Source of the DNA: Giardia intestinalis | Lineage: Eukaryota | Length of the DNA: 64,000 bases | NCBI GenBank assembly: GCA_000002435.2 | Contig: CM018792.1 | Strand: one strand, 5' to 3' | Part shown: positions 6,823-64,000 of the stretch, piece after piece | How the letters are laid out: every line of letters starts with the position of its first letter | How positions within the stretch are numbered: position 1 is the first letter of the stretch | Notes under the pieces: model-generated | What the model was told of the DNA's origin: nothing | The model's input: the letters and a program-made list of their open reading frames with translations, nothing else | Database searches by the model: none | Translations under genes and position numbers: made by a program

Positions 6823-8931
6823 ATGGATGTCTACATCCTTTCTGTTGCCCCCCTATCCCTCCTTATCCGTGCCCTGAACAGTAGTAATGCAGTGCTGGTC
6901 AATGTTCCAGGCGGGACGCAGCGAATCCTGAACTCAAATAAGCTAAAGGTAGGAGATATATCCACAGTGCTCCTGACCAATGCACACCCGTATTTCTTAG
7001 AAGGCCTCTCGGGGCTTCTCCAGACCTTATGCAATAACGGCCCTCCGGTGACTACTGATCTACTGACGAGCGACCCCAGTGTTCTTGATCTTCTAGAAAC
7101 ACTCAACAATTTTGCACATACACCATATTGGGATGGACGCACTGTACTGTTTAGTAAGACATACCAGGACTATTCCACTGCTTTGTATGCGATACGCGCC
7201 ATAATCCTGGATTCAGAAATGCCACTCTTATTCTCCATAGAGCATGTTGTGACGAAGCGTAAGTTGGACAAGAAGAAAATTAAGGAGCTAAGATTGACCG
7301 GTCTTCAATGCAAGGAGCTGGCAGCTGGAAGCACGGTTGTTCATGAAGGTGTCCCCATTATTCCCGATGATGTCTCTGTGCTGGCGACTACCCGTAGCGT
7401 TATCATTCTAATGGATACATACTATCCCGAGAAAACAGAGCAAATACTCTCAGCCGTGTTAGAACTAGTTCAAAAGGAAGGGTCGTTTCTTATTTGTGCA
7501 TCTGAGCGGTACAGGCCTCTGTTATCAGCGAAAGTGTTGAAGCGGAATACGTTAGATATTGTATACTGTGCCGACAGCTACACCCTTAAATCTCCAAATG
7601 ATCCAGGTGTTCTCACGGCATATGCAGATTTTGTTGGTTTGCGCAGAATTTGGAATGTACTTGTTCCTCATGCACTTATACCTCCTCTCGAATCGTGTTT
7701 GGCCTCAGAAACTCCCAGTCTGACAAGGTTTTTTCTCAGCACTGCTCTAGAGCGATTTGCTCCGATTCGGCTTTCTACTTTGCAAGACCTTATATCTAGC
7801 CTGGAAATCTATCCCCAATACTCTGGTTTGCTTACAGAGACCGATCCCAGCTTAGCTCCCCTAGCGTGCGTTCACAGTCTAGATGTTCCAGGGCTATTAC
7901 TCTTAGGGACCGGTGCTTCGGTTCCCTCCAAATATCGCAACGTGTCTGGTTACCTGGTTGTCACATCTAGTCGACATACAGTATGCATTGATCCTGGAGA
8001 GGGGACCCTGCAACTATTGGAATGGGCGGCCAGGGGCATATCGGTTTCAGACTTGGTTGTTAGCTTGTCTTTTATTGGCATTACACATAGTCATGCTGAT
8101 CATTATCTTGGATTATCCTCGCTGGTTCACCGGTATTTGCTCGAAGTCATGCGCCTCACAACTGAAGGTGACACAGAAAAACTACATCCTTTGATTATAT
8201 TGGCGGGATCAACAGAACTGTCCTTTTTGGATCACAGTCTTAAGACCCTTGAAAAATCTTATCAACAACTAGCAAATATGTATCTGCAAATATTACCTAG
8301 AGAGGCAACCAACTATTTAGGAAGACTTACCTCCCTTCCGGAGTTCTTGGATGGGTGTCAATCTACTTCTTACTACCTGACAGCTGTACGCGACATTCAG
8401 TTTCTCTGTGTGCCATCTGATCATATCCCCGGCTCTATCTCCATATTCTTGAGGGACAACTCCTTGCAGATCGGTATCGGTATTAGCGGAGATACCAGAC
8501 CCTCTCCGGCCTTCGTTTTTGGGGCGCAAATGCTTAGAGAGGCTAACACTAGGTTCCTAATAATTGTTCATGAAGCTACTTTTGCTGATTCTGAGCAGGA
8601 TCTTGCTGCACTAAAGGGACACAGTACAATAGGCCAAGCAGCCGAACAAATACGAAAATGTGGAGCAGACGTGGGGATTTTCACTCACTTTTCACAGCGA
8701 TACACAAAGAATATTCCAGAATTGTCCTCTGATAAGGATCAGGAGGACAAGGAGGCTCCAATTGACAGGCCTGTCTGCTTGTACGCATCTGACATTATGT
8801 GGCTACCAATTGAACAGCATTCAAATCATCATAGTGTGCATAATTTACCTGTGTCAATCCAGCCCTGGACAGATCTAGCCTCAGTTGTAAAGCAGCTCTA
8901 TGTAATGGCTGACTGTTCCGCTATCAATTGA
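6823..8931 (+). CDS. Ribonuclease Z / tRNase Z long form (ELAC2-like), tRNA 3'-end processing endonuclease
   Basis: The C-terminal metallo-beta-lactamase domain has the HxHxDH motif GITHSHADHYLGL, an HEATF motif, and the family-specific C-terminal motif FTHFSQRY. The N-terminal pseudo-MBL half (NVPGGTQRILNSNKLKVGDISTVLLT...GLSGLL) aligns with the ELAC2 N-terminus. The start was chosen at the ATG at 6823 (MDVYIL...), which I verified. The upstream 26 codons of the track ORF overlap the neighbouring gene. Confidence 0.8.
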   Translation: MDVYILSVAPLSLLIRALNSSNAVLVNVPGGTQRILNSNKLKVGDISTVLLTNAHPYFLEGLSGLLQTLCNNGPPVTTDLLTSDPSVLDLLETLNNFAHTPYWDGRTVLFSKTYQDYSTALYAIRAIILDSEMPLLFSIEHVVTKRKLDKKKIKELRLTGLQCKELAAGSTVVHEGVPIIPDDVSVLATTRSVIILMDTYYPEKTEQILSAVLELVQKEGSFLICASERYRPLLSAKVLKRNTLDIVYCADSYTLKSPNDPGVLTAYADFVGLRRIWNVLVPHALIPPLESCLASETPSLTRFFLSTALERFAPIRLSTLQDLISSLEIYPQYSGLLTETDPSLAPLACVHSLDVPGLLLLGTGASVPSKYRNVSGYLVVTSSRHTVCIDPGEGTLQLLEWAARGISVSDLVVSLSFIGITHSHADHYLGLSSLVHRYLLEVMRLTTEGDTEKLHPLIILAGSTELSFLDHSLKTLEKSYQQLANMYLQILPREATNYLGRLTSLPEFLDGCQSTSYYLTAVRDIQFLCVPSDHIPGSISIFLRDNSLQIGIGISGDTRPSPAFVFGAQMLREANTRFLIIVHEATFADSEQDLAALKGHSTIGQAAEQIRKCGADVGIFTHFSQRYTKNIPELSSDKDQEDKEAPIDRPVCLYASDIMWLPIEQHSNHHSVHNLPVSIQPWTDLASVVKQLYVMADCSAIN

Positions 8932-9865
8932 ATATGTTATGGAAAAAGCGCGAAATAGCGTTCCCCGACTCTCTAGTTCGCTTTGTAAATCGCGGGGGAG
9001 GGTCCATAGCTGCCCCGTAGTAATCTTTGTCGCGATGGTAATTCTCAAGCAAGCTTTCGAAATACTCTAGCCCATTTATGGATGAGCTATCAACCCCATT
9101 GAATATTCCATCGAAGTAGACACGGCAACACAGCTCCTTGACTAATGAGTGCACCATAGTAAATATAGTGTTGTCCGTGCACGACACCTCTATAAGCAAA
9201 TCAACAGAATTGCTGACTAGCTTCATGACGAGGTCAAAGGGCGGCGTGTCAATATCGAGTTTGTTAAGACTAAAGGCAGGATGAAATATATACCTTACAT
9301 GTCTGATGGTCTTATGCGGCGGTGGCTCAATCTGTAGCTGTATGTTAAACCATCCGTCCGGCCTCAGTCCAAGGCGGATTGACTCTGGGGAACACTTTGT
9401 TCTTATGGCGACATTCTTTATCTTCCATCTGCGCTCTCCCATTGGTCCATCCATATCTATGTTTGCGCGGCATAATGGGCATGAAGTATTGTCATAGTGT
9501 AGCCATCTAATGAGGCAGATCCGATGAAAGGTATGGGTGCACGGTAGAACAACGACGTCATTAGGGTCTGGATTCGAATGGGCCGTCTCTCGCACCCTGT
9601 TGCAATCTACAATTGTAGCGCTCCTATCAGGCTCCTTGTGTGGTTTGAGCTGAATGACCAGAGGGAGCTTCTTCTTAGACACCTTCGTTGTTATTCTCTC
9701 CATCTCCACACTCCGATGGGACGGGGTCTGTATGGAGGACATAGATTCACATTCGTGCATGCTTGCTTGACAGATTACACACCAAACGCCGTCCTCAGAC
9801 ATCGAGGTACTTGGAATGGGCGTTGGTGTTTGACCTTGACTGGGAGTAACTCTAAACATAGACAT
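8924..9865 (-). CDS. RING-H2 zinc-finger protein (putative E3 ubiquitin ligase)
   Basis: The N-terminal motif is CVICQ...(insert)...LPCTHTFHRICLIRWL...SCPLCRANI, a C3H2C3 RING-H2. The ATG at 9863-9865 was verified. Its 3' end overlaps the tRNase Z 3' end by 8 nt (convergent). Confidence 0.7.
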   Translation of the reverse strand: MSMFRVTPSQGQTPTPIPSTSMSEDGVWCVICQASMHECESMSSIQTPSHRSVEMERITTKVSKKKLPLVIQLKPHKEPDRSATIVDCNRVRETAHSNPDPNDVVVLPCTHTFHRICLIRWLHYDNTSCPLCRANIDMDGPMGERRWKIKNVAIRTKCSPESIRLGLRPDGWFNIQLQIEPPPHKTIRHVRYIFHPAFSLNKLDIDTPPFDLVMKLVSNSVDLLIEVSCTDNTIFTMVHSLVKELCCRVYFDGIFNGVDSSSINGLEYFESLLENYHRDKDYYGAAMDPPPRFTKRTRESGNAISRFFHNIFN

Positions 9866-37325: not shown

Positions 37326-38546
37326 TTACTGTGATTCTCCACCTTCCCCATCAGCTAGAGGAAGAGTGTCGTAGCAGGACTGGCGAATAATTCCAACAAC
37401 TTCGGGCACTGTTATCGGCCAGGGGTGCATCTTATTCTTTCCGCTTGCAAATAGAGAAATTGCATAGTCCATTACTTCTTCCTCGTCATAAAGAGTGCGG
37501 CGACCCTCCACATCTGCGCAAATGACCTGCTCAACCATATCTTTGAACTCCTCATAACTGTCCATTTGGAATGCAGAAAGAATCTTCTCTAGCGTCTTTT
37601 CGAAGCGCTGATCGTCATGTGTCTCCGAGTGCTGCTTACATATATTCAGATACGCTATCAAGAAGATGGCACAGGCCTTCCCGTGTGGAACACCCTTGAA
37701 ATAGGTTATCTTGTACGAAAGACCGTGTGCAATGGAGGTGCCTCCAATTGTAATGGCTATACCAGCGTAGCAAGAGGCAAGCGTCATCTCATCGCGAAAC
37801 TCTGTCATCTCCGGGTCTGTTAAGTCCGTAAATGTTGTCTTCATGATCGCCGGCTTCAAGTAGAAATGCCAGCAGATCTGAAGATGCTTAAGGCTCTCAA
37901 CAGATGCTTTAACAGAGAGCTCAGTTGTTTTAACCGTAAGCATAGATTCAACTGCATGACACAGGATGTCCAGGAACATGCTAAGCGTTTGAGATGTCGG
38001 CAGATACAGTTGATAGCAAGGGTCGACCAGCGAGATCTTCGGAAATACGAGGTTAGGAATGCTGATTTTAGTTTGCTTAATGTGGTCGGTCAAAATGGCA
38101 TAGGGCGTTACTTCAGAGGCTGTGCCTGCTGCCGTGCTAATGCATATCACATCCTTTGGTGACTCAGAGATTGCCACCTTGATGCCCTCCTTGTTGACTA
38201 GATATACAGCAATGGCTTTTGCCGCATCCATAGCGGAGCCCCCTCCCAGCCCAATGACAAAGTCCACCTGCTTACCAGACACCTGTCTGGCTGCCTTTGT
38301 GACGGTCACTGTACTAGGGTTCGGCTCAACCTCATTGAAAAGATAACTTTCGATCTCGTGGCTGGCTAATATGTCCTTTAGCTTGCTCAACGAGTGGTTT
38401 GCCTGGGATGAAGTACTTCCTGTGACCACAAGAGCCTTCTTGCCTGCATACGACGCAAAGATACTTGCATGTTTCTCAAGCACGTCGCGATCGATATAAA
38501 TTGGATGCCTGATCACATCGGCAAAGGCACTCAGGTCGAGGGGCAT
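37326..38546 (-). CDS. Iron-containing (group III) alcohol dehydrogenase
   Basis: It has the Fe-ADH signature GLGGGSAMDAAKAIAVY and the metal-binding His cluster AHGLSYKITYFKGVPHGKACAIFL. The track start (38655-38657) is GTG. The ATG at 38652-38654 would abut the upstream HCMP stop, so I chose the ATG at 38544-38546 (MPLDLSAFADVIRHPIYID), which is preceded by an AT-rich initiator-like sequence (aatctaattttaaaATG on the coding strand) and fits the Fe-ADH N-terminus. Confidence 0.85.
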   Translation of the reverse strand: MPLDLSAFADVIRHPIYIDRDVLEKHASIFASYAGKKALVVTGSTSSQANHSLSKLKDILASHEIESYLFNEVEPNPSTVTVTKAARQVSGKQVDFVIGLGGGSAMDAAKAIAVYLVNKEGIKVAISESPKDVICISTAAGTASEVTPYAILTDHIKQTKISIPNLVFPKISLVDPCYQLYLPTSQTLSMFLDILCHAVESMLTVKTTELSVKASVESLKHLQICWHFYLKPAIMKTTFTDLTDPEMTEFRDEMTLASCYAGIAITIGGTSIAHGLSYKITYFKGVPHGKACAIFLIAYLNICKQHSETHDDQRFEKTLEKILSAFQMDSYEEFKDMVEQVICADVEGRRTLYDEEEVMDYAISLFASGKNKMHPWPITVPEVVGIIRQSCYDTLPLADGEGGESQ

Positions 38547-38653
38547 TTTTAAAATTAGATTTCTCAAGGACACCGAGTCGCTTTGTTGCGACCTCATATC
38601 TGAGAGTACGGACCAGGTCCATTTACTAGGGAGCTGGTAGCTATGAAAAAACA

Positions 38654-40822
38654 TCACATTAGTCCGATTCGTGAGCTCACTATTGAAGAATTGCTAGAGA
38701 GTTTTGGAGGCATGTTCACCTTATTAGTCTTTTTCTTACATACAAACCACCAGACAAGAAACCCTATTACGCCTGCTATTGCCAATATTGCGATAGTAAC
38801 CCCTACTGCGATACCTGTTGCATTAGATCGAGACCCTGTCTCATTCTGAGGTTGGGTGCTATACTCAAGGCAATGAACAGGGCCATGTCCAGTGGACGGA
38901 GCCTTGCACTTGGTGCAGTTGGGAACCCCCATAATGAGAGAGCCACTGTCCGTTGAATCGCACTTAAAGCAGTACCTATTGTTGACAATAGCATAGGTTG
39001 ATTGACAGCTGGTACAGTAAAGATCAGAATTACAGCTCATACACCCTTCGCCGCAATGAATGCATTTCCGGGTCTGTGTGTTTCCAATGTAAGGACCAAG
39101 AGTCGCGCAATCGGATACACAGGATCCGTCGGGTGCTAGAAAGAAGTTCTCCTGACAGCGATCACACGTTGACGGATCTGTCTGGCAAAGCTCGCAATTT
39201 TTCATTGAGCATGAAGTTGAAGAGATGCAGTGAACCTGATTAAAATTGGGAACCATTCCGGTAGTACAAGCACTACATTTTAACTCAGTCGTCGTGTAAC
39301 CGCCTTTGTAACAGCGAATGCAGTTTGGTATCCCTGTAAAGGTACTGCCAGACTGGGTAGATGAGCAAGCAATGCAGTTTCCCACTGATCCTGGAACATA
39401 CTGTTCCGGGACACAGTCTGTACACTGGTTTTCTCCAGGGCCTACACAAGCCCTACAGCTGGAATGGCACTTCTCGCAGGCACCAGTAGCACTGTCTCCA
39501 TAGTAGTGATTGTCATCACTGTTCTGAGTGCTGCAGTTACTCACACACGTTTTATTATCAAGAGCAAGATAGGTGCGCATGTGGCACACAGCACACCTTG
39601 TCGTATCCGTAGTGTTGCACGTTTTGCATGCAAGGATGCTACAGTCACCCTCGGGAGGTCCAGGCGGCGTAACAGCATTGCAGTGATTATTTTGAGGAAC
39701 CGATCCATCAGAGCATTTCGTACAAGTTAATGTGGATTGCGCATATGAACACTCCACACAGTTTGCAATACCCTGTCTAGCTGTATCGCTACATGAAACG
39801 CATGCTTGCATATCACTCGCAGTAGGATTGGTGAACAGACCAGATGCTGTGCTTGTGTTACACTGCAGGCATCTGCCACCGACATCCACATCTCCAGAGC
39901 AGATGGACCTAGCCAGAGTGGAGTACCTGTGATAGCAGCCTCCATAGTGGTAAACAAACTTCTTCTCAGCACACTGTGTACACCGTCCACCACTACATGT
40001 GCACATAAGGTTAAAGTCACTACAATCACCGTCTATAATCGCTAAACCGGTGTTCTTACATTGCTTGCAGCATATAGTATCAGCTACGTGAATCTGATTG
40101 GATACTTCACAGATTTTGGGGGCATAATTTCCGTTGGCCAAAAGACACGTGGATGCAAACTGCAGAAAGCCTGCTCCACAACGGTTACAATATGTAGATC
40201 CAGACGACGTAGAATGCACACACCCCGAAAGGGCATCCTCTACGCCTCCGATGGGAACACACTTGTTGTCTATGGCTACTTTGTCTCTGTCAGCGCAGCC
40301 ATGACAGATGACCACAAAACCGCCTGTGCTGCCATCGTCTGGAATTGCCGTGCACAGGTTGCACCCGGAAGTACCATCTGACTCAAAGCATGCAATGCAA
40401 GACTGAGTTGTGGAGGATTTCTTCGGATTATCAGTATATCCATCTTGGTTGCACTGAGTACAATAACCGTCAACCAGTTGCTCATTCTCATCATCAACAA
40501 AGTCACATACTAGACTTCCAGCGCTGTCCGTGCTGATGTTGAAGCAGCTACCGTAATGGAGAAAATAACCTTTAGTACATCTAGTGCATCCTGCTGCCGA
40601 ACAAACGTTTCCTTGTGCGTCATTTGCAGATACACATCTACCGTTTATAGGAACCTTCTCTGTTGCACATTTAGAACAGTATTTGAGATCATTTATAGAG
40701 ATTGTACAAGAGCCAGACACACCACCGCAGTCACTATCAGATGTGCATCCGGCAACAATAGAGGCCTTAATAATTACTGTAACTAGAATCATGGCTAGGG
40801 ATGTGTGCAAAGAAGTCATCAT
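38654..40822 (-). CDS. High cysteine membrane protein (HCMP)
   Basis: It has a signal peptide (MMTSLHTSLAMILVTVIIKASIVAG), 722 aa of CxxC/GxC repeats, and a C-terminal TM (IAVGVTIAILAIAGVIGFLVWWFV) with a basic tail KKKTNKV... and no CRGKA. The ATG at 40820-40822 was verified and has an AT-rich upstream sequence. Confidence 0.8.
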   Translation of the reverse strand: MMTSLHTSLAMILVTVIIKASIVAGCTSDSDCGGVSGSCTISINDLKYCSKCATEKVPINGRCVSANDAQGNVCSAAGCTRCTKGYFLHYGSCFNISTDSAGSLVCDFVDDENEQLVDGYCTQCNQDGYTDNPKKSSTTQSCIACFESDGTSGCNLCTAIPDDGSTGGFVVICHGCADRDKVAIDNKCVPIGGVEDALSGCVHSTSSGSTYCNRCGAGFLQFASTCLLANGNYAPKICEVSNQIHVADTICCKQCKNTGLAIIDGDCSDFNLMCTCSGGRCTQCAEKKFVYHYGGCYHRYSTLARSICSGDVDVGGRCLQCNTSTASGLFTNPTASDMQACVSCSDTARQGIANCVECSYAQSTLTCTKCSDGSVPQNNHCNAVTPPGPPEGDCSILACKTCNTTDTTRCAVCHMRTYLALDNKTCVSNCSTQNSDDNHYYGDSATGACEKCHSSCRACVGPGENQCTDCVPEQYVPGSVGNCIACSSTQSGSTFTGIPNCIRCYKGGYTTTELKCSACTTGMVPNFNQVHCISSTSCSMKNCELCQTDPSTCDRCQENFFLAPDGSCVSDCATLGPYIGNTQTRKCIHCGEGCMSCNSDLYCTSCQSTYAIVNNRYCFKCDSTDSGSLIMGVPNCTKCKAPSTGHGPVHCLEYSTQPQNETGSRSNATGIAVGVTIAILAIAGVIGFLVWWFVCKKKTNKVNMPPKLSSNSSIVSSRIGLM

Positions 40823-56493: not shown

Positions 56494-57090
56494 TTACTTC
56501 TGAATCGTAATAGGAATATCAACAGAAGGCTCAGGTGTGACTATGTTGCAAGGAATACGGATAACGACAATCTTGTTTGCATACGACGCAACGACCTTAT
56601 CAGCAGGATAATTTTCCTTCAGGGAGGCGCTAAGAAGCTTGATTCCATCTGCCTCTACAGTGATGGCGCCGGTATTGGAGATTGTTATGGACGGCTTTGT
56701 TTCTGATACAATATGAAACGTGACCACTCCACGTGCGACAATCGGCATGCTTCCGTGATGAACGGTGACAGGAAGCTCATTCATATCTTTGGATGACAGA
56801 AATGGGCAGGGTTTGGGACCGGTCCAGCGCTCTTCTTTTGAACAGTGGGGTCCATGATGTCCCCTGCCCTTAATAAAGTGGGAGAACGGGGGCCCGTGTT
56901 TCCAGAATTTGCGGCGCTCGCGGTCGCAGCAGTATGGGCCTGGGCCCTGTCTACAGCACTCCCTTTCATCATGGCCAGCTTCGCACTCACAGCTAGAGGA
57001 CGATGATGAGCTGGAGCTTTCATCCGGTGGACGCCTTCCATGATGCCTCCTTCCAAAGAACTCGCCGTTGGCGTGCCTTGGGTTGAACAT
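56494..57090 (-). CDS. Small protein with His/Cys/Ser-rich N-terminus and C-terminal beta-sandwich resembling an alpha-crystallin (HSP20) or CS domain
   Basis: The N-terminus is HHGRRPPDESSSSSSSSSCECEAGHDERECCRQGPGPYCCD...HHGPHC. The C-terminus VTVHHGSMPIVARGVVTFHIVSE...ITVEADGIKLLSASLKENYPADKVVASYANKIVVIRIP resembles the sHSP core and the tail (SA-YENGVL-I-IPK). The ATG at 57088-57090 was verified and has an AT-rich upstream sequence. Confidence 0.35.
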   Translation of the reverse strand: MFNPRHANGEFFGRRHHGRRPPDESSSSSSSSSCECEAGHDERECCRQGPGPYCCDRERRKFWKHGPPFSHFIKGRGHHGPHCSKEERWTGPKPCPFLSSKDMNELPVTVHHGSMPIVARGVVTFHIVSETKPSITISNTGAITVEADGIKLLSASLKENYPADKVVASYANKIVVIRIPCNIVTPEPSVDIPITIQK

Positions 57091-57229: not shown

Positions 57230-58915
57230 ATGTCAATTCTGGACAAGTTCACTTGGTTCAACGTTTGTCGGGCTGGACTCGTTAATCAGATAAAGGATAA
57301 CATTGCTAAGTTTAAGACTGTGCGGGACGAGGTCACCGGGGCTACAGCTCTCATGCATGCGTGTGTTGATAACAATCTTGAGGTTGTGCGAATTCTGCTA
57401 CCATATGAGGATGTTATCACTGATAATAGTGGGAAGACAGGTCTCATGATTGCTGCAGAGCACGGGTACCTGGATTTAGCCAGACTTTTAATGGTGACTC
57501 AGGTTGGAAAGCAGCGCGAGAATGGCCAAACTGCACTCATGCATGCGGCAGCCTATGACTTTGAAGAGGTCGTAGAGCTTCTTTTGCCGAGGGAGGGTAC
57601 AATGACAGACAACAATGGATGGACAGCGCTCATGTGTGCCGCCTGGCGAGGATCTAATAAGGCCGCGTTGGTTTTGGCTAAGGTGGAGGCAGGAATGGCT
57701 AGCAAGCAAGGAGAGACCGCCTTTCTTTGTGCGTGTGATGCTGGTAACTATGAGCTTGCCAGGCTTCTGTTGGAGAAAGAAGGTAGAAGCACGCTGCGGA
57801 CAGGAGAAACCGGTCTTCACCTGGCTGCACGGAGTGGGTGCAAGGCTATTGTAGAGCTTCTTCTGGAACCGCTTTGTCGGAAGCAAACAAAGGCAGGAAA
57901 GACAGCTTTGATGTATGCAGCATCTGCGGGCAATTTGGAGATAGTAATGCTTTTATTAGAAAAAGAAGTAGGATACCAAGATACAGACGGGCGCACAGCT
58001 ACCATGAATGCCATCCTGAATGGACATGAGGGTTGCATGACAGCTTTGTTGCCTCATGAGAAGGAGATTGTCGATAAAAAGGGGCAGACTGCTCTAATTG
58101 TTGCTCAGAGCACAACGCCCAGTGTAATGTCTTACCATGTAGCTGCTTTATTAGGTGGAATCATAGATCCAGAAACAGGGAGCACTACTCTGATACAGGC
58201 AGCACGACGTGGTTTGTCCGATATTGTTGGGATTCTTGTTCCTGCCCAAACAAACTTAACTGATGAAAGTGGAATGTGTGCAATTCACTATGCTGTTGCG
58301 AGTCACAATCTGGAGTGCATTAGGTTGTTGAAGCAATATGAAGGTAAGACACTCAATGCCAATGGGCATCATGCCCTGATAATGGCTGTGATAGAGGGAG
58401 ATGTCTCTGTCATACTAGAACTTATTGAACACTCTTGGATTCCAGATGCAGAAGGCAACTATCCAATTACATACTGTAAGGAAGATCCACTGAGCGATAT
58501 CTATCAGCTCCTCTTCTCCCACATGATGCGGACACACCCCAATTTTAAGGCTGTTACATCAGCGTTCTGCCTTGCTCTTCATACATGCTTCTCGTTGCTA
58601 CTTAATGACTACCCCGATAACGATGATTTTGAATTTCTCTCGGAGTTTCTGCTGCTCATATCTGATCTCTTCTTCAGTCCAGAAAGGATTACTGCTACAC
58701 AGATAACGGGAGAGATTACTACGCTCCTGGACAGCTTCACTGCGACGGTCCACGAGTTCCCCTGCTGCGTCTGCATAGACCGCCCGGCCTTCGTCATCAT
58801 CCGGCCCTGCATGCACATGTGCATATGCAGCCAGTGCGTCGCGTCTCTGCGTGGGCGGTGCCCGTACTGCCAGCGCGCCGTTACAGAGCACTTCGAGATT
58901 GCCCTCGAGAAGTGA
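57230..58915 (+). CDS. Ankyrin-repeat protein with C-terminal C3HC4 RING finger (putative E3 ubiquitin ligase)
   Basis: About 10 ankyrin repeats are followed by CCVCIDRPAFVIIRPCMHMCICSQCVASLRGRCPYCQRAV. The ATG at 57230 (cttttaaaaATG) was verified. The stop TGA at 58913-58915 is embedded in the poly(A) motif AGTGAAC (58911-58917). Confidence 0.75.
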   Translation: MSILDKFTWFNVCRAGLVNQIKDNIAKFKTVRDEVTGATALMHACVDNNLEVVRILLPYEDVITDNSGKTGLMIAAEHGYLDLARLLMVTQVGKQRENGQTALMHAAAYDFEEVVELLLPREGTMTDNNGWTALMCAAWRGSNKAALVLAKVEAGMASKQGETAFLCACDAGNYELARLLLEKEGRSTLRTGETGLHLAARSGCKAIVELLLEPLCRKQTKAGKTALMYAASAGNLEIVMLLLEKEVGYQDTDGRTATMNAILNGHEGCMTALLPHEKEIVDKKGQTALIVAQSTTPSVMSYHVAALLGGIIDPETGSTTLIQAARRGLSDIVGILVPAQTNLTDESGMCAIHYAVASHNLECIRLLKQYEGKTLNANGHHALIMAVIEGDVSVILELIEHSWIPDAEGNYPITYCKEDPLSDIYQLLFSHMMRTHPNFKAVTSAFCLALHTCFSLLLNDYPDNDDFEFLSEFLLLISDLFFSPERITATQITGEITTLLDSFTATVHEFPCCVCIDRPAFVIIRPCMHMCICSQCVASLRGRCPYCQRAVTEHFEIALEK

Positions 58916-58917
58916 AC
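58911..58917 (+). promoter_or_regulatory. Giardia-type polyadenylation signal AGTGAAC (AGTRAAY) overlapping the TGA stop of the ankyrin-RING gene
   Basis: The sequence gagaAGTGAACaaa places the stop codon TGA at 58913-58915 inside the motif. Equivalent motifs are AGTAAAC at 47337-47343, AGTAAAT at 48781-48787, and AGTAAAT at 60710-60716. Confidence 0.6.
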
Positions 58918-58921
58918 AAAG

Positions 58922-58994
58922 CACACCCGACGGGACTTGAACCCGCAACCCCCAGATCCGAAGTCTGGTGCGCTATCCATTGCGCCACGGGTGC
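58922..58994 (-). tRNA. tRNA-Arg (anticodon UCG)
   Basis: The minus strand folds by hand into a 73-nt cloverleaf: acceptor GCACCCG/CGGGTGT (G1-U72 wobble), U8, D-stem GCGC/GCGC with loop AATGGATA, anticodon stem CCAGA/TCTGG with loop CTTCGGA (anticodon TCG), variable GGGTT, T-stem GCGGG/CCCGT with loop TTCAAGT, and discriminator G. It is very similar to eukaryotic tRNA-Arg-TCG (shared AATGGATA and GACTTCGGATC). Confidence 0.85.
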
Positions 58995-59064
58995 CTTGGC
59001 GCGCGCAAAACCACTACACGCACATAAGCGTTGTGACGAGTGTATGGATATAGGCTAAACAAAA

Positions 59065-60699
59065 ATGCTTCTGGCCATTCTCGCGGCGCTCCTCGGGGCC
59101 GAGGTTCGACAGTGCGTTTACTACGAAAACGACAGCTTTACTCTTGTACCTCTCGAGGACAAGGGCCACAACTGCGTCGCCACTACCATTTCTGACATCG
59201 AGGTCTTCAACGAGACGGGCTGGATGCGCTTCAACGTCACGACGAGCGCAAGCTATCCAGACTTCATCCAGATGCGCGCAGTCGGATTCGCTGAGGGCAA
59301 GATCTTCCAGCACCACATCTTCAACCATTATCATAATCTCAAGGACTGGTTCCTCTTTGCATACCTTCACGCAGACGACTACCCCCAAGAGCTCTACGAC
59401 TTTCTTCAGGAGAACCTTGACTGGACCCGTAGCACTGCCTACAAGTACGCCGAGGTTGACAGCTTCTGGCGTCAGGTCGCCTACACACTCGATCACTTCG
59501 ACGGGCTGGTAGAGGCGTATCGGGCAACGGCTCCGCAGGAGGAGATGCTTTCAGAGCTGGACCTCTGGACGTACCTATCGAGCGGCGATCTTCTCGATAT
59601 CGTAAACTTTGCAGTGCCATCCACACGGATGGACTTCTCAAAGATGACGCGCGAGGAAATCTCCGACTATCTCGCTTTTAGAAGCCATTGCAGCGGCCTT
59701 GTTTACTACAATGGCGACACCGTCTACATTGGCCAAACAGCCTGGTTCTTCTATGGTGGCATGACTCGTGTCTTCAAGGGATACACTCTCAACCTTAACG
59801 ATGTGTCTAATGCAGCCGAAACGCTCACGTTTAGCTCATACCCAGGCTTCTCCTACTCATTTGACGACTGGACAGTGACCTCGCAAGGACTTGTTATCAT
59901 TGAAACGACAGCCAACGTTCTAAACACCAGCCTGTATGATAACTGCACGCCTAGGTCTGTTCTCACGTGGATTCGCTCCCAGGTGGCCTCCCGGATGGCA
60001 GTCTCAGGCGCCGGCTGGCATCAAGCCAACAGTCAGTACAACTCTGGAACGTATAACAACCAGTGGATTGTCGTCGACCTTAAGCAAATTGAGAGTATGA
60101 CCGTGTACAAGAACAACTTTGTTTGGGTTAGCGAGCAGATGCCCGGATATATCGTTTCGGAAGATGTCGCCCATGATATGACTTATGGCGGATACTACTT
60201 CCCATCTTACAACACGCCCTTCTTCGATGAGCTCTGGATTGTCGCTGGCTATCCCAGCGTCGCAGAGGGTGATGCCAGCTATCGTTATGACAAGAATCCT
60301 CGTGGACTTATGTTTGCACGCGATGTTCCACAGATTACTGGCATCGACGATATGAAGAGGATCATGCGCTATAATAAGTGGCAAACAGATCCGCTTGCAA
60401 TTACCGAGGGCCAGACGGAGCCAGATCCAGGGAACGGCATCTCTGCCAGGTACGATCTGCGCCTCGATGAGTCTCGTCGTAAGGCATTCGGAGGTTACGA
60501 TGCAAAGATCCTTAGCTATAATGGCCATAGCAGGAAGATGATCGCGTACTTTATCTCTGGGCCCACGACAGACGATCAAGAGCCATGGGACTTCTCCAAG
60601 AGCACCCTTTACTGTCCTCGTAGAGGTCTTAAGGATGGTCCGTACCAGTATGATTGGCAAGAACTACACCTTCCTGTTTATTGGCATAACAATATGTAA
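59065..60699 (+). CDS. Phospholipase B-like protein (PLBD / 'LAMA' Ntn-hydrolase family), secreted
   Basis: It has a signal peptide MLLAILAALLGAEV, a size of 544 aa, and the conserved central block YNNQWIVVDLK characteristic of phospholipase-B-like proteins. The ATG at 59065 was verified (aacaaaaATG). AGTAAAT lies at 60710-60716, 11 nt after the stop. Confidence 0.7.
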   Translation: MLLAILAALLGAEVRQCVYYENDSFTLVPLEDKGHNCVATTISDIEVFNETGWMRFNVTTSASYPDFIQMRAVGFAEGKIFQHHIFNHYHNLKDWFLFAYLHADDYPQELYDFLQENLDWTRSTAYKYAEVDSFWRQVAYTLDHFDGLVEAYRATAPQEEMLSELDLWTYLSSGDLLDIVNFAVPSTRMDFSKMTREEISDYLAFRSHCSGLVYYNGDTVYIGQTAWFFYGGMTRVFKGYTLNLNDVSNAAETLTFSSYPGFSYSFDDWTVTSQGLVIIETTANVLNTSLYDNCTPRSVLTWIRSQVASRMAVSGAGWHQANSQYNSGTYNNQWIVVDLKQIESMTVYKNNFVWVSEQMPGYIVSEDVAHDMTYGGYYFPSYNTPFFDELWIVAGYPSVAEGDASYRYDKNPRGLMFARDVPQITGIDDMKRIMRYNKWQTDPLAITEGQTEPDPGNGISARYDLRLDESRRKAFGGYDAKILSYNGHSRKMIAYFISGPTTDDQEPWDFSKSTLYCPRRGLKDGPYQYDWQELHLPVYWHNNM

Positions 60700-61533
60700 G
60701 CTCTTCCACAGTAAATTGCTTTTCCATGTGATGGCGCCTCAATGAACTGTTGTGTATGCTGCGCTGCTGGGGTCTTGCCCGCAAATGCGGTCCAAAAATC
60801 TCACGAGCAAGCCTCGCCCACTTCCTGGCCAGTCTGGAGATGAAGATTGGTCGCATATGATAGCAGTACGAGATTCCCTTTATCAGTATATCCAGAGCCC
60901 GACGCCTTCCTTGGTCGCTTCGTGTTGTGTACTCTGTCTGGAGACGCGCATCCAGGGCTCACGCATTCATGTTATTCACCAATGGTACCTCTCCTTGGCC
61001 TGCCGTCAGGATGAATGAAACTCAGGTCGTCCCTGCACTTCTTGACCTCCTCGCTGTGGTATCCCTCTGGCTGCTGGATGACACCCACGCCCACCGCCTT
61101 GCGTTTGTGTCGGGCTCTGCTCTGGCCGCCGGGCTGGCCTGATCTCCAGCTTGCGTTGCACTCCCCGAGACACGGAGGCACAGGTACCGACGATCGCATG
61201 GAGCTCCTGGTCGTCCCTCTGCACCGGTGGAGAGGAGCCCCTGCTTGCTGTCTACAACCGCCCTCGGACTGGCCAAGAGTCGAGCACGAGCTTATCCCGA
61301 GGCCTCCGAATGCACCGGAGACGGGCTCCGATGGCACAGCACTCGATGCGATTCTTCCTGCTTGCACCCTAACTGAGGCCTGTGCACTGAGAGGCCGGTG
61401 GCACCCACCCGCTGGGGGCAGGCCACGATCTGGTGGTCCGGAAGGCGCTTGCAAGGGGCTGGGCGTCAGTCCAGGGGATGATCCAGGCCCTAAGCATTCA
61501 CTCTCTATGAGCTGCGGCCCGACAGCCACAGAG

Positions 61534-63606
61534 CTAGAACTCGTCCACCGTCCCCATGAGCTCCACGTTCTCGGCCGCTGCCCTCTTCTTCGAGATCGGC
61601 TTCGATCCCCGCCGCCTCCGCAGGACGAGCCAGCATGCGAGGGCGACGGCCGCTATGATGAGAAGGGAGACAACGACTGCCACGGTGATCGTCGTGGAGC
61701 TGGAGCTGGCCTTCCTGGTCTGAGAGACGCATGTGTCATCCTGGAGAATGTACCCCTCCATGCATATACAGAGAGAGCCGACTGATTCTGATCCGCTTGG
61801 ACAGCCTGAGGCGCAGGATCTCTTGCTCGGCTGGACGTTGTGATTGCTGTCCGCACATGAGAGGCACTCGCCACTTGCGCTGCAGCTCGAGCACCCTGTG
61901 GCGTCTGATGGACAGGTGTTCCTAGCGATGCATGCGCCATCACTACTGGGCTCAAAGCCCTCCGCACAGACGCATCTGCCACTACCATCTGGTTGCTGAT
62001 TTGGTCCATTACACTGAGATACACACGAAGAACTATCTACCGAAACAAATCCTTGGGAACACTTTGTGCACATGACTCTGCTGTTGCTGAAGGTACATGT
62101 TTGGCACCCTTCGATACCGCATGGAGTACAAGCATAATTAGTATCATCTCCATAATACCCTTCACCACATCCAGCGGAGTCTACACACTCAGTCGTGCCA
62201 AGGTCATTATACTTGATGTACTTCCCCGAAGCACATGATATGCACCTATCGGGCCCAGAGCCTGTGCAATCTGCGCAAGCTGGATCGCATGGCTCGCATC
62301 TACTTGTGCCAGTGTCTAAGTAGGTTCCTGAGCCACAACTGCAGCGGCAAATACCATTTTCATCGCAGCTACCTGGATTATCTGCTGGACACGAGTCAAC
62401 ACAGGATGCACCGCCCACGGCTGCATACTTACTATCCTTACAGCCAATACAGATGGGAGTGCTGGAAGCATCAGAGCCAGGAACGCACATGGCGCAATTG
62501 GAAATGGAGGCATCACAGCTACTGCACCCAGGATCCTTCTTATAATACCCTTGCGCTTCATTACAAGTAGTGCATCTACCGTTGAAAGCTTCTACACAGA
62601 TGCTACTGCCAAGGGGGTCACGAGTACTATAACATCCTCCTTCATACAAAAAGATGGTAAGACCTGGGAAGTTTTTATTACAGGCTGTGCATTTGCCAGA
62701 ACTGACATCCTTGTTACAGCTCCCTCTTGCAGTTGTTGGCCCACAGTTTCCATTGTGGGGTGCTTCGCTAGTATTAGCACACTGCTTGCAAGCAGAGTAA
62801 CCAGCTATATTTATCTGATTTTCTTCAGCGCATATATTGTTTCCCCCACTTTCCTTATTATAGCATCCGCCCTTATGGTAGACGTAACCAACTGCACAGT
62901 GAGTACAGTATCCGTTTTTGCATTCATTAGAGCCGACGTCTGTACACTGGCCATTGATCGGAGCTTTATCGTCAGCTGAACAAGAAGTACACTGAATACT
63001 AGCAGTGCTTGCAGCATTATTTGGTGCAGGATCTTCTGATAAAGAAACGCAGGTTGAACAACCATCCATTCCAACCTTACCATTGAAGCCAACAGTATCA
63101 CCACACAGGATACACTTTTCCTCAGCATTAGTATCTGAATTCGTAAAAACATTTTCATAGTCTGTTTCGCAAACGCTACACATACCACTTGAAACAGTCT
63201 TACAGATGTGCGAGCCAGGCCACTCATCCTTGCTGTAGCAACCACCATAAAATAGGAAGTAAGTTGTCTCTGCATTAGGATCGTCACTTCTACTTCCCTT
63301 TCCACCAGTGCATGACGTGCAGCGCTGTCCGCCATTGCCACCATCTTCTTGAGCACAGATAGCTATATCTATAGATGAGTCTGCATCGTCTTTCCCCACG
63401 CACCCGCCATTGATAGGCACCTTTCCAGAGGTGCACTCTGTACATAGGGTAACTCCCCGCCCGAACCTGACGCACTTGTCTTGCACGCAGTTAGGCTTGT
63501 AGCCTGTACAGGCAACGTAGTAGTCATTCTTGTACGGAGTAGAGCCATCGCCCGGCTGGGCCGCTAAGCCGATAACCGCTAGACCGAAGAGAAACAATAC
63601 CGACAT
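61534..63606 (-). CDS. High cysteine membrane protein (HCMP)
   Basis: It has a signal peptide MSVLFLFGLAVIGLAAQ, about 690 aa of CxxC/GxC repeats, and a C-terminal TM ITVAVVVSLLIIAAVALACWLVL followed by RRRRGSKPISKK..., with no CRGKA. The track start (63655-63657) is TTG, and the ATG at 63604-63606 was verified. Confidence 0.8.
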   Translation of the reverse strand: MSVLFLFGLAVIGLAAQPGDGSTPYKNDYYVACTGYKPNCVQDKCVRFGRGVTLCTECTSGKVPINGGCVGKDDADSSIDIAICAQEDGGNGGQRCTSCTGGKGSRSDDPNAETTYFLFYGGCYSKDEWPGSHICKTVSSGMCSVCETDYENVFTNSDTNAEEKCILCGDTVGFNGKVGMDGCSTCVSLSEDPAPNNAASTASIQCTSCSADDKAPINGQCTDVGSNECKNGYCTHCAVGYVYHKGGCYNKESGGNNICAEENQINIAGYSACKQCANTSEAPHNGNCGPTTARGSCNKDVSSGKCTACNKNFPGLTIFLYEGGCYSTRDPLGSSICVEAFNGRCTTCNEAQGYYKKDPGCSSCDASISNCAMCVPGSDASSTPICIGCKDSKYAAVGGASCVDSCPADNPGSCDENGICRCSCGSGTYLDTGTSRCEPCDPACADCTGSGPDRCISCASGKYIKYNDLGTTECVDSAGCGEGYYGDDTNYACTPCGIEGCQTCTFSNSRVMCTKCSQGFVSVDSSSCVSQCNGPNQQPDGSGRCVCAEGFEPSSDGACIARNTCPSDATGCSSCSASGECLSCADSNHNVQPSKRSCASGCPSGSESVGSLCICMEGYILQDDTCVSQTRKASSSSTTITVAVVVSLLIIAAVALACWLVLRRRRGSKPISKKRAAAENVELMGTVDEF

Positions 63607-64000
63607 CACTGAATTTTCCGGCGCACCTTTGCAACAGAACGAAAAGGTTTCTTGCAACCGAGTACATTAACTGCTAGCGAATCCGTGTGCGCATACTGAG
63701 ATTCCCGTGTCTGAAGCATAACGTGGAGGGCAACTAGCGGTACGATGAGATGACTCGTTGAGCCGGAGTCGCACTGGGCTCAGCTTGTAAATGGAACCAC
63801 TCCATGGAAGCCCCCTGCGTCACGGACCTGTGCTGATCAGCGCGCCCCTGCTCTCCATCCTGGTGCTGAACGGGTGATGTGCCACACAGGCAGACCTGGA
63901 GGCAGAAGAGGAAGGGAGGGGCGGGGCATTTTAATTCGCAAAATGAACTCGACGGAGAACGCGTAATCGCTCGACGGTGGCCCTGAAGAGGCATCGGACG

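Follow-up and report, generated by a model that had tools for sequence, protein, structure and literature searches.

An antisense tRNA-Arg(UCG) gene directly behind a shared stop codon and poly(A) signal in Giardia intestinalis: a conserved example of compact 3' ends

The overlap of stop codons with polyadenylation signals is known from Giardia lamblia, Giardia muris and Spironucleus (bioRxiv 10.1101/2021.04.06.438666; Xu et al., 2020, PMC7641422). The poly(A) signal of Giardia is the hexamer AGURAA, which takes the form AGUGAA in 15% of genes, and the distance from the hexamer to the cleavage site is below 20 nt, most commonly 13-15 nt (Bilodeau et al., bioRxiv 10.1101/2021.04.06.438666). In addition, genes of G. 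intestinalis, tRNA genes included, are separated by a median of 81 bp (PMC7641422), and among tail-to-tail gene pairs whose ends have been mapped, 81% have overlapping transcripts (Franzén et al., 2013, PMC3610916). The latter statistic concerns pairs of protein genes, in which one Pol II unit faces another, and overlaps between mRNAs and tRNAs are not discussed in the same study.

Encounters between Pol II and Pol III units have been described in other eukaryotes. In budding yeast, TFIIIB and tRNA genes form a roadblock to Pol II at about half of the tRNA genes, with read-through not seen, and this roadblock acts mainly on polymerases approaching from the 5' (TFIIIB) side of the tRNA gene, in conjunction with the NNS pathway (Roy et al., 2016, PMC5052057). 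In the mouse Polr3e gene, a MIR element forms an opposite Pol III unit in the path of Pol II which is reported to be intronic and to slow elongation (Yeganeh et al., 2017, PMC5358760). The locus described here, found in a 64-kb window (the whole stretch of DNA that was analysed), brings these situations together in that a Pol II gene whose stop codon lies inside its poly(A) signal runs directly into the 3' end of a tRNA gene on the opposite strand.

The protein-coding partner is the ankyrin-repeat/RING gene 'Protein 21.1' GL50803_4843 (XP_001704919.1), a 561-aa ORF on the plus strand at positions 57230-58915, whose protein is an exact match to Giardia intestinalis WB XP_001704919.1 / KAE8304456.1. 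The product contains eight Ank_2 stretches (Pfam, E 1.4e-81) and, at its C-terminus, a C3HC4 RING finger at aa 510-552 (58757-58885, plus strand; Pfam PF13920 zf-C3HC4_3, E 2.7e-9), and these multiple ankyrin repeats combined with a C3HC4 finger are the features expected of a 'Protein 21.1' member with a C-terminal RING. The same gene also appears in the sources under the name Ankyrin repeat protein 2. The downstream neighbour on the same strand is the phospholipase B gene GL50803_93548 (59065-60699, plus strand; Pfam PF04916 (Phospholip_B), E 4e-128), with a product identical to WB phospholipase B. The 70-bp spacer upstream of this neighbour (58995-59064) would have to hold both the 5' flank of the tRNA gene, where TFIIIB is expected to bind, and the putative phospholipase B promoter.

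The tRNA-Arg(UCG) gene lies on the minus strand at 58922-58994 (73 nt, with the discriminator G73 at 58922). The Rfam model RF00005 matches this interval over its entire length (positions 1-71 of 71), without flagged non-standard pairs, and scores 66.3 bits where the gathering score is 29 (E 3.2e-12); ARAGORN calls a tRNA-Arg with anticodon TCG (position 34, in a 7-nt loop) at 58921-58994 on the same strand, the sole tRNA in the window. Giardia has 63-65 tRNA genes in total, a single one of which falls within these 64 kb. The anticodon occupies 58961-58959 on the minus strand. Both elements of an internal Pol III promoter are recognizable in the gene by comparison with the general A box and B box consensus, namely a putative A box TGGCGCAATGGA at tRNA positions 8-19 (58987-58976, minus strand) and a putative B box GGTTCAAGTCC at tRNA positions 52-62 (58943-58933, minus strand). 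The CCA end is not encoded, since G73 is followed by CTT.

The point at which the two genes meet (58905-58930, TCGAGAAGTGAACAAAGCACACCCGA) contains the poly(A) signal AGTGAAC at 58911-58917 on the plus strand. Its hexamer, AGUGAA at 58911-58916, is one of the two forms (AGUAAA or AGUGAA) of the Giardia AGURAA signal, and the TGA stop of GL50803_4843 (58913-58915, plus strand), the in-frame end of the ORF, lies within it. A sequence-only reading of this DNA had proposed that a tRNA occupies 58922-58994, that it starts 7 nt past the stop of the ankyrin-RING gene, that the TGA is embedded in AGTGAAC, and that the stop codon, the polyadenylation motif and the 3' end of the tRNA gene share about 12 nt. 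Each of these statements agrees with our results: the tRNA is called by two independent programs, by the Rfam model far above threshold; six bases (58916-58921) follow the stop and the tRNA begins at the seventh; the TGA falls inside 58911-58917; and the 12 nt from 58911 to 58922 contain the hexamer with the stop as well as the 3'-terminal base of the tRNA. The same reading had also called the packing extreme. The tightness of the layout is real, whereas its exceptional character does not hold in Giardia, where most tail-to-tail transcripts overlap and the sharing of stop and signal is established, so that such packing is the norm.

Comparison with the rest of the window points in the same direction. 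The stop codon lies inside an AGTRAA motif in 3 of the 32 long ORFs, against 0.17 expected from composition (P about 6e-4), and one of these three ORFs is the immediate upstream neighbour of GL50803_4843. The gaps between convergent ORF pairs in the window are -8, 12, 18, 99, 107 and 834 nt. The combination of the tRNA-Arg(UCG) gene with a stop inside the signal is not a chance pattern, because the tRNA scores far above threshold and stops in AGTRAA are enriched in the window. At the same time, a 6-nt gap to the tRNA and a 3-nt overlap of the mRNA end with it are within the usual pattern of Giardia. The locus resembles the tail-to-tail pairs of Franzén et al. (PMC3610916) in being made of convergent units with overlapping mapped 3' ends, and differs from them in that a tRNA gene transcribed by Pol III takes the place of one partner.

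The position of the mRNA 3' end was taken from published mapping. According to Table S1 of Franzén et al. (2013, PMC3610916), GL50803_4843 lies at CH991763:1391165+1392850 and phospholipase B GL50803_93548 at CH991763:1393000+1394634; when the offset between the window and CH991763 is fixed with the latter gene, GL50803_4843 coincides exactly with the ORF at 57230-58915. In that table, UTR lengths are counted from the final base of the stop codon, and the commonest site within a cluster of 4 or more poly(A) tags is used. The 3' UTR of GL50803_4843 is given as 9 nt in WB, blank in AS175, 9 nt in P15 and 902 nt in GS, with expression of 50-161 FPKM across the isolates listed (PMC3610916). The 9-nt UTR of WB and P15 corresponds to ACAAAGCAC (58916-58924, plus strand), and the published poly(A) site is therefore 58924, as the length is measured from the last base of the stop; cleavage at 58925 is equally possible because that base is an A. 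The mapped mRNA thus reaches 3 nt into the tRNA gene on the opposite strand, or 4 nt should the A at 58925 come from the template, and its end faces tRNA positions 71-73.

This site lies 13 nt from the first A of AGUGAA, a spacing within the range commonest for Giardia signals, with the site itself coming from the published mapping. It had been predicted from the letters alone that the poly(A) site would fall 10-15 nt after the start of AGTRAAY, inside the antisense tRNA, and that a Pol II mRNA would overlap a tRNA gene; mapped sites upstream of 58922 would have spoken against this. The published site bears out both predictions, by a small margin; the overlap covers only 3-4 nt of mature tRNA sequence. 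In its UGA within AGUGAA, its cleavage at 13 nt and its very short 9-nt UTR, the gene is like the other diplomonad genes with a dual-use stop and AGURAA (bioRxiv 10.1101/2021.04.06.438666; Xu et al., 2020, PMC7641422). The signal itself is no different from theirs, and all that the present locus adds is the position of its cleavage site within a tRNA gene of the opposite strand.

An alternative is that the site at +9 is minor or artefactual and that the main mRNA reads through the tRNA to be polyadenylated further downstream, in which case the overlap would comprise the whole tRNA gene. The isolates agree with this to the extent that GS was assigned the 902-nt UTR and AS175 none; there may be further sites besides +9, or some isolates may not use +9. 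However, the 902-nt GS site falls within the phospholipase B ORF, and long 3' UTR assignments may be wrong according to the authors' own warning (PMC3610916), while the 9-nt length was obtained independently in WB and P15 from clusters of at least 4 tags, at a spacing to AGUGAA that is typical. Moreover, no second AGTRAA copy is found between the 58911-58917 signal and the phospholipase B gene. Internal priming was considered as an origin of the +9 site and rejected as unlikely, as a single genomic A follows 58924 in place of an A-run.

The same alternative could draw on two other observations. About half of all genes are represented among the 3' UTRs that Bilodeau et al. validated with long reads, and GL50803_4843 is not one of them; this absence is uninformative, given that coverage, given that several neighbours of GL50803_4843 are likewise missing and given that the pipeline drops sites overlapping the next gene (bioRxiv 10.1101/2021.04.06.438666). 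Additionally, public contigs span the ORF through the tRNA and end at 59015-59040. The use of these ends (59015, 59022 and 59040) as a proxy for transcript ends was set aside, as their libraries may be RNA or DNA and a sister run bridges the gap. Considering the evidence on both sides, a main mRNA that extends past the tRNA gene appears to us quite improbable.

On the other strand, the question is how Pol III ends its transcript. The minus strand past the tRNA reads CTTTGTTCACTTCTCGAGG, and the only T-rich element after the tRNA is the 3' trailer CTTTGTT (58915-58921, minus strand), which is the complement of the mRNA 3' UTR plus the last base of the stop codon and constitutes a candidate Pol III terminator. 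Four or more consecutive T do not occur on the minus strand for 842 nt after the tRNA, so WB lacks a canonical Pol III terminator over that distance. Interrupted T-runs reportedly can terminate Pol III in other eukaryotes, and Pol III probably stops in the CTTTGTT trailer. If it does, the primary tRNA transcript and the mature mRNA would overlap by about 10 nt.

Alternatively, for want of a canonical terminator, Pol III might read through the trailer and generate antisense RNA over the 3' part of the ankyrin-RING gene, leading to interference with the mRNA or to its regulation by small RNA. The situation in WB, with CTTTGTT alone before the distant T-run, would allow this, and antisense polyadenylated transcripts are abundant in Giardia (PMC3610916). 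On the other hand, the trailer in a second assemblage-A isolate is TTTTGTT at the same place, and the reported behaviour of interrupted T-runs also argues for a stop in the trailer; our search of the literature for Giardia Pol III termination rules or tRNA/mRNA overlaps returned nothing relevant. We hold read-through by Pol III to be very improbable, and both it and the extended mRNA are possible, lesser rivals with thin support.

The locus was also compared with its orthologues in assemblage B (GS and two other assemblies), assemblage E (P15), another assemblage-A isolate and two divergent G. duodenalis lineages (71% protein identity; runs ERR3333378-83). A tRNA-Arg(TCG) gene lies antisense straight after the stop in all compared loci, with the same ARAGORN call in nine related loci, and the spacer between stop and tRNA measures 6 nt, except in one of the five lineages, where it is 5 nt. 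Across the five lineages, the tRNA varies in 3 of 73 alignment columns against 41 of 70 in its 5' flank, the most variable segment, which indicates purifying selection on the tRNA relative to its flanks. Variable columns amount to 16 of 31 in the last 31 nt of the ORF, 2 of 7 in the signal with the stop, and 2 of 4 in the spacer past an invariant 'AC', the spacer having also undergone one 1-nt indel. The signal reads AGTGAAC without variation in assemblages A, B and E; the two divergent lineages have TGTAAAC, in which the stop is TAA, and thereby differ from the described dual-use signals in having U as first base (UGUAAA), a putative variant. An unchanged layout with a freely varying spacer fits simple, neutral inheritance, and selection would also be compatible with it.

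The trailer varies among lineages as well, being CTTTGTT in assemblages A and E, TTTCGTT in assemblage B, and CTTGTTT and GTTTGTTT in the divergent lineages. A T-rich trailer with a run of three or four T is nevertheless kept in every lineage despite the base changes in the spacer, and this fits a terminator role. The T-richness is, however, also an automatic result of the A-rich signal on the opposite strand.

These observations bear on a further explanation, according to which the locus is a co-adapted two-way terminator: the same 12 or so bases would end translation, direct mRNA cleavage and terminate Pol III on the other strand, and the tRNA gene, with TFIIIC, TFIIIB and Pol III bound to it, would block Pol II past the cleavage site and thereby shield phospholipase B, 149 bp downstream. 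The retention of layout and spacing in five lineages would suit such a device, as would the persistence of the T-rich trailer and the lack of any other run of at least four T for 842 nt. Additionally, most auxiliary cleavage/polyadenylation factors are missing in Giardia (bioRxiv 10.1101/2021.04.06.438666), and the yeast roadblock offers a precedent in which, as here, Pol II meets a tRNA gene a few bases past its own 3'-end signal and the tRNA gene is flanked by Pol II genes that run in the same direction (PMC5052057). The comparison with yeast is nonetheless inexact, because Pol II here would arrive at the 3' end of the tRNA, where no clear peak was seen in yeast (PMC5052057), and because the Giardia gene has a conventional poly(A) signal.

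Further evidence weighs against co-adaptation. The spacer tolerates substitutions and a 1-nt indel, the richness in T needs no explanation of its own, and the idea is built on one locus. In the best match from outside G. duodenalis (P0030/L014, 43% identity), the stop lies in the same AGTGAAC, no tRNA is present downstream and the next ATG is 15 nt away; the signal consequently does not need the tRNA, although the orthology of this gene is uncertain because its neighbours differ and the tRNA is missing. No clear orthologue of the ankyrin-RING protein was found in G. muris, the best matches there being 27-32% identical and paralogue-like. In view of these points, we regard a co-adapted two-way terminator as unlikely. 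As for the mouse Polr3e MIR, the likeness lies in an opposite Pol III unit in the path of Pol II; the Pol III unit is here beyond the cleavage site, and so any interference would be expected to affect termination and not mRNA output.

We therefore favour, with fairly high confidence, ordinary genome compaction as the explanation of the locus, in which two independent convergent units have interdigitating 3' ends and have been inherited as such. In this scenario, Pol II would transcribe the ankyrin-RING gene and the AGUGAA signal, with the UGA inside it, would direct cleavage and polyadenylation 13 nt from its first A, giving the 9-nt UTR of the published mapping, whose last 3 nt are antisense to tRNA positions 71-73. 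Pol III would transcribe tRNA-Arg(UCG) from the other strand by means of the predicted internal A and B boxes and would most likely stop in the T-rich trailer CUUUGUU, the complement of the UTR and stop of the mRNA. The tRNA would then be completed by RNase Z and by CCA addition, the latter being needed because CCA is not encoded. The finished RNAs would overlap by about 10 nt at most, and Pol II would have to enter the tRNA gene before cleavage becomes possible. Such an arrangement would have been inherited unchanged among the G. duodenalis lineages, and a special regulatory function would be unnecessary.

Overall, the locus is a new and well-conserved example of a known habit of Giardia and not a new kind of system, and it leaves the current view of Giardia gene organisation unchanged. 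It illustrates signal sharing in a streamlined eukaryote, as 12 nt hold a stop codon, a poly(A) signal, the region of mRNA cleavage and a tRNA gene's 3' end, and probably serve as a Pol III terminator as well. Besides, it provides a compact test locus for Pol III termination in Giardia without a canonical T-run and for the capacity of tRNA genes to limit read-through by Pol II; the missing canonical Pol III terminator is the loose end worth following. If the two-way terminator were true and many Giardia tRNA genes were so placed, tRNA genes would represent a general punctuation device in diplomonad genomes.

At the stop of the ankyrin-RING gene (Protein 21.1, GL50803_4843; 57230-58915, + strand), where the TGA at 58913-58915 lies inside AGTGAAC, two divergent G. 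duodenalis lineages (L010-L013; runs ERR3333378-ERR3333383) carry TGTAAAC in place of AGTRAAY, indicating that the first A of the poly(A) hexamer is not conserved. Despite this substitution, the position of the stop-region signal and its spacing from the tRNA were kept in both lineages. The discriminator base of the antisense tRNA-Arg(UCG) (58922-58994, - strand) falls within the 9-nt UTR of the ankyrin-RING mRNA (58916-58924); this base, at 58922, is G73 in WB, whereas A73 is found in assemblages B and E as well as in the two divergent lineages. In addition, another assemblage-A isolate (SRR3177747) showed a G>A change at 58921, by which the tRNA trailer, CTTTGTT in WB (58921-58915), becomes a canonical TTTT run.

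Beyond the tRNA, at higher coordinates, contigs of 7 to 60 kb from independent public assemblies all stop within a 50-bp stretch at approximately 61033-61079, and one of them has five mismatches at 61065-61071. This stretch adjoins a region in which both strands carry long ORFs (60972-61785) and lies beside a cysteine-rich membrane protein gene (61534-63657); it is probably the boundary of a repeat or variable family.

On the other side, the ankyrin-RING gene is adjoined by a DUF5450 gene (56494-57090, - strand), whose TAA stop is likewise inside AGTAAA. Automatic gene calls in several public assemblies broke this 198-aa ORF into 96 plus 86 or 130 aa, and the GS and P15 records have it undivided. 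The stop of the ORF at 37326-38654 (- strand) is also embedded in AGTAAA, and this ORF is the downstream member of a pair of minus-strand ORFs with one base in common: in TGATG (38652-38656), the final A of the upstream TGA also opens the downstream ATG. Moreover, two convergent long ORFs (6823-8931, + strand, and 8924-9865, - strand) overlap by 8 nt at 8924-8931, where TCAATTGA is a perfect palindrome holding the TGA stop of both, so that the final codons and stop of the two genes come from a single 8-mer.

Beyond G. duodenalis, a Giardia-like organism (L014; run SRR30592944) encodes a protein just 43% identical to the ankyrin-RING protein, and AGTGAAC contains the stop of this gene (L014 2981-3003). 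The ATG of the following gene is merely 15 nt beyond, which places the predicted cleavage site inside the start region of that gene.
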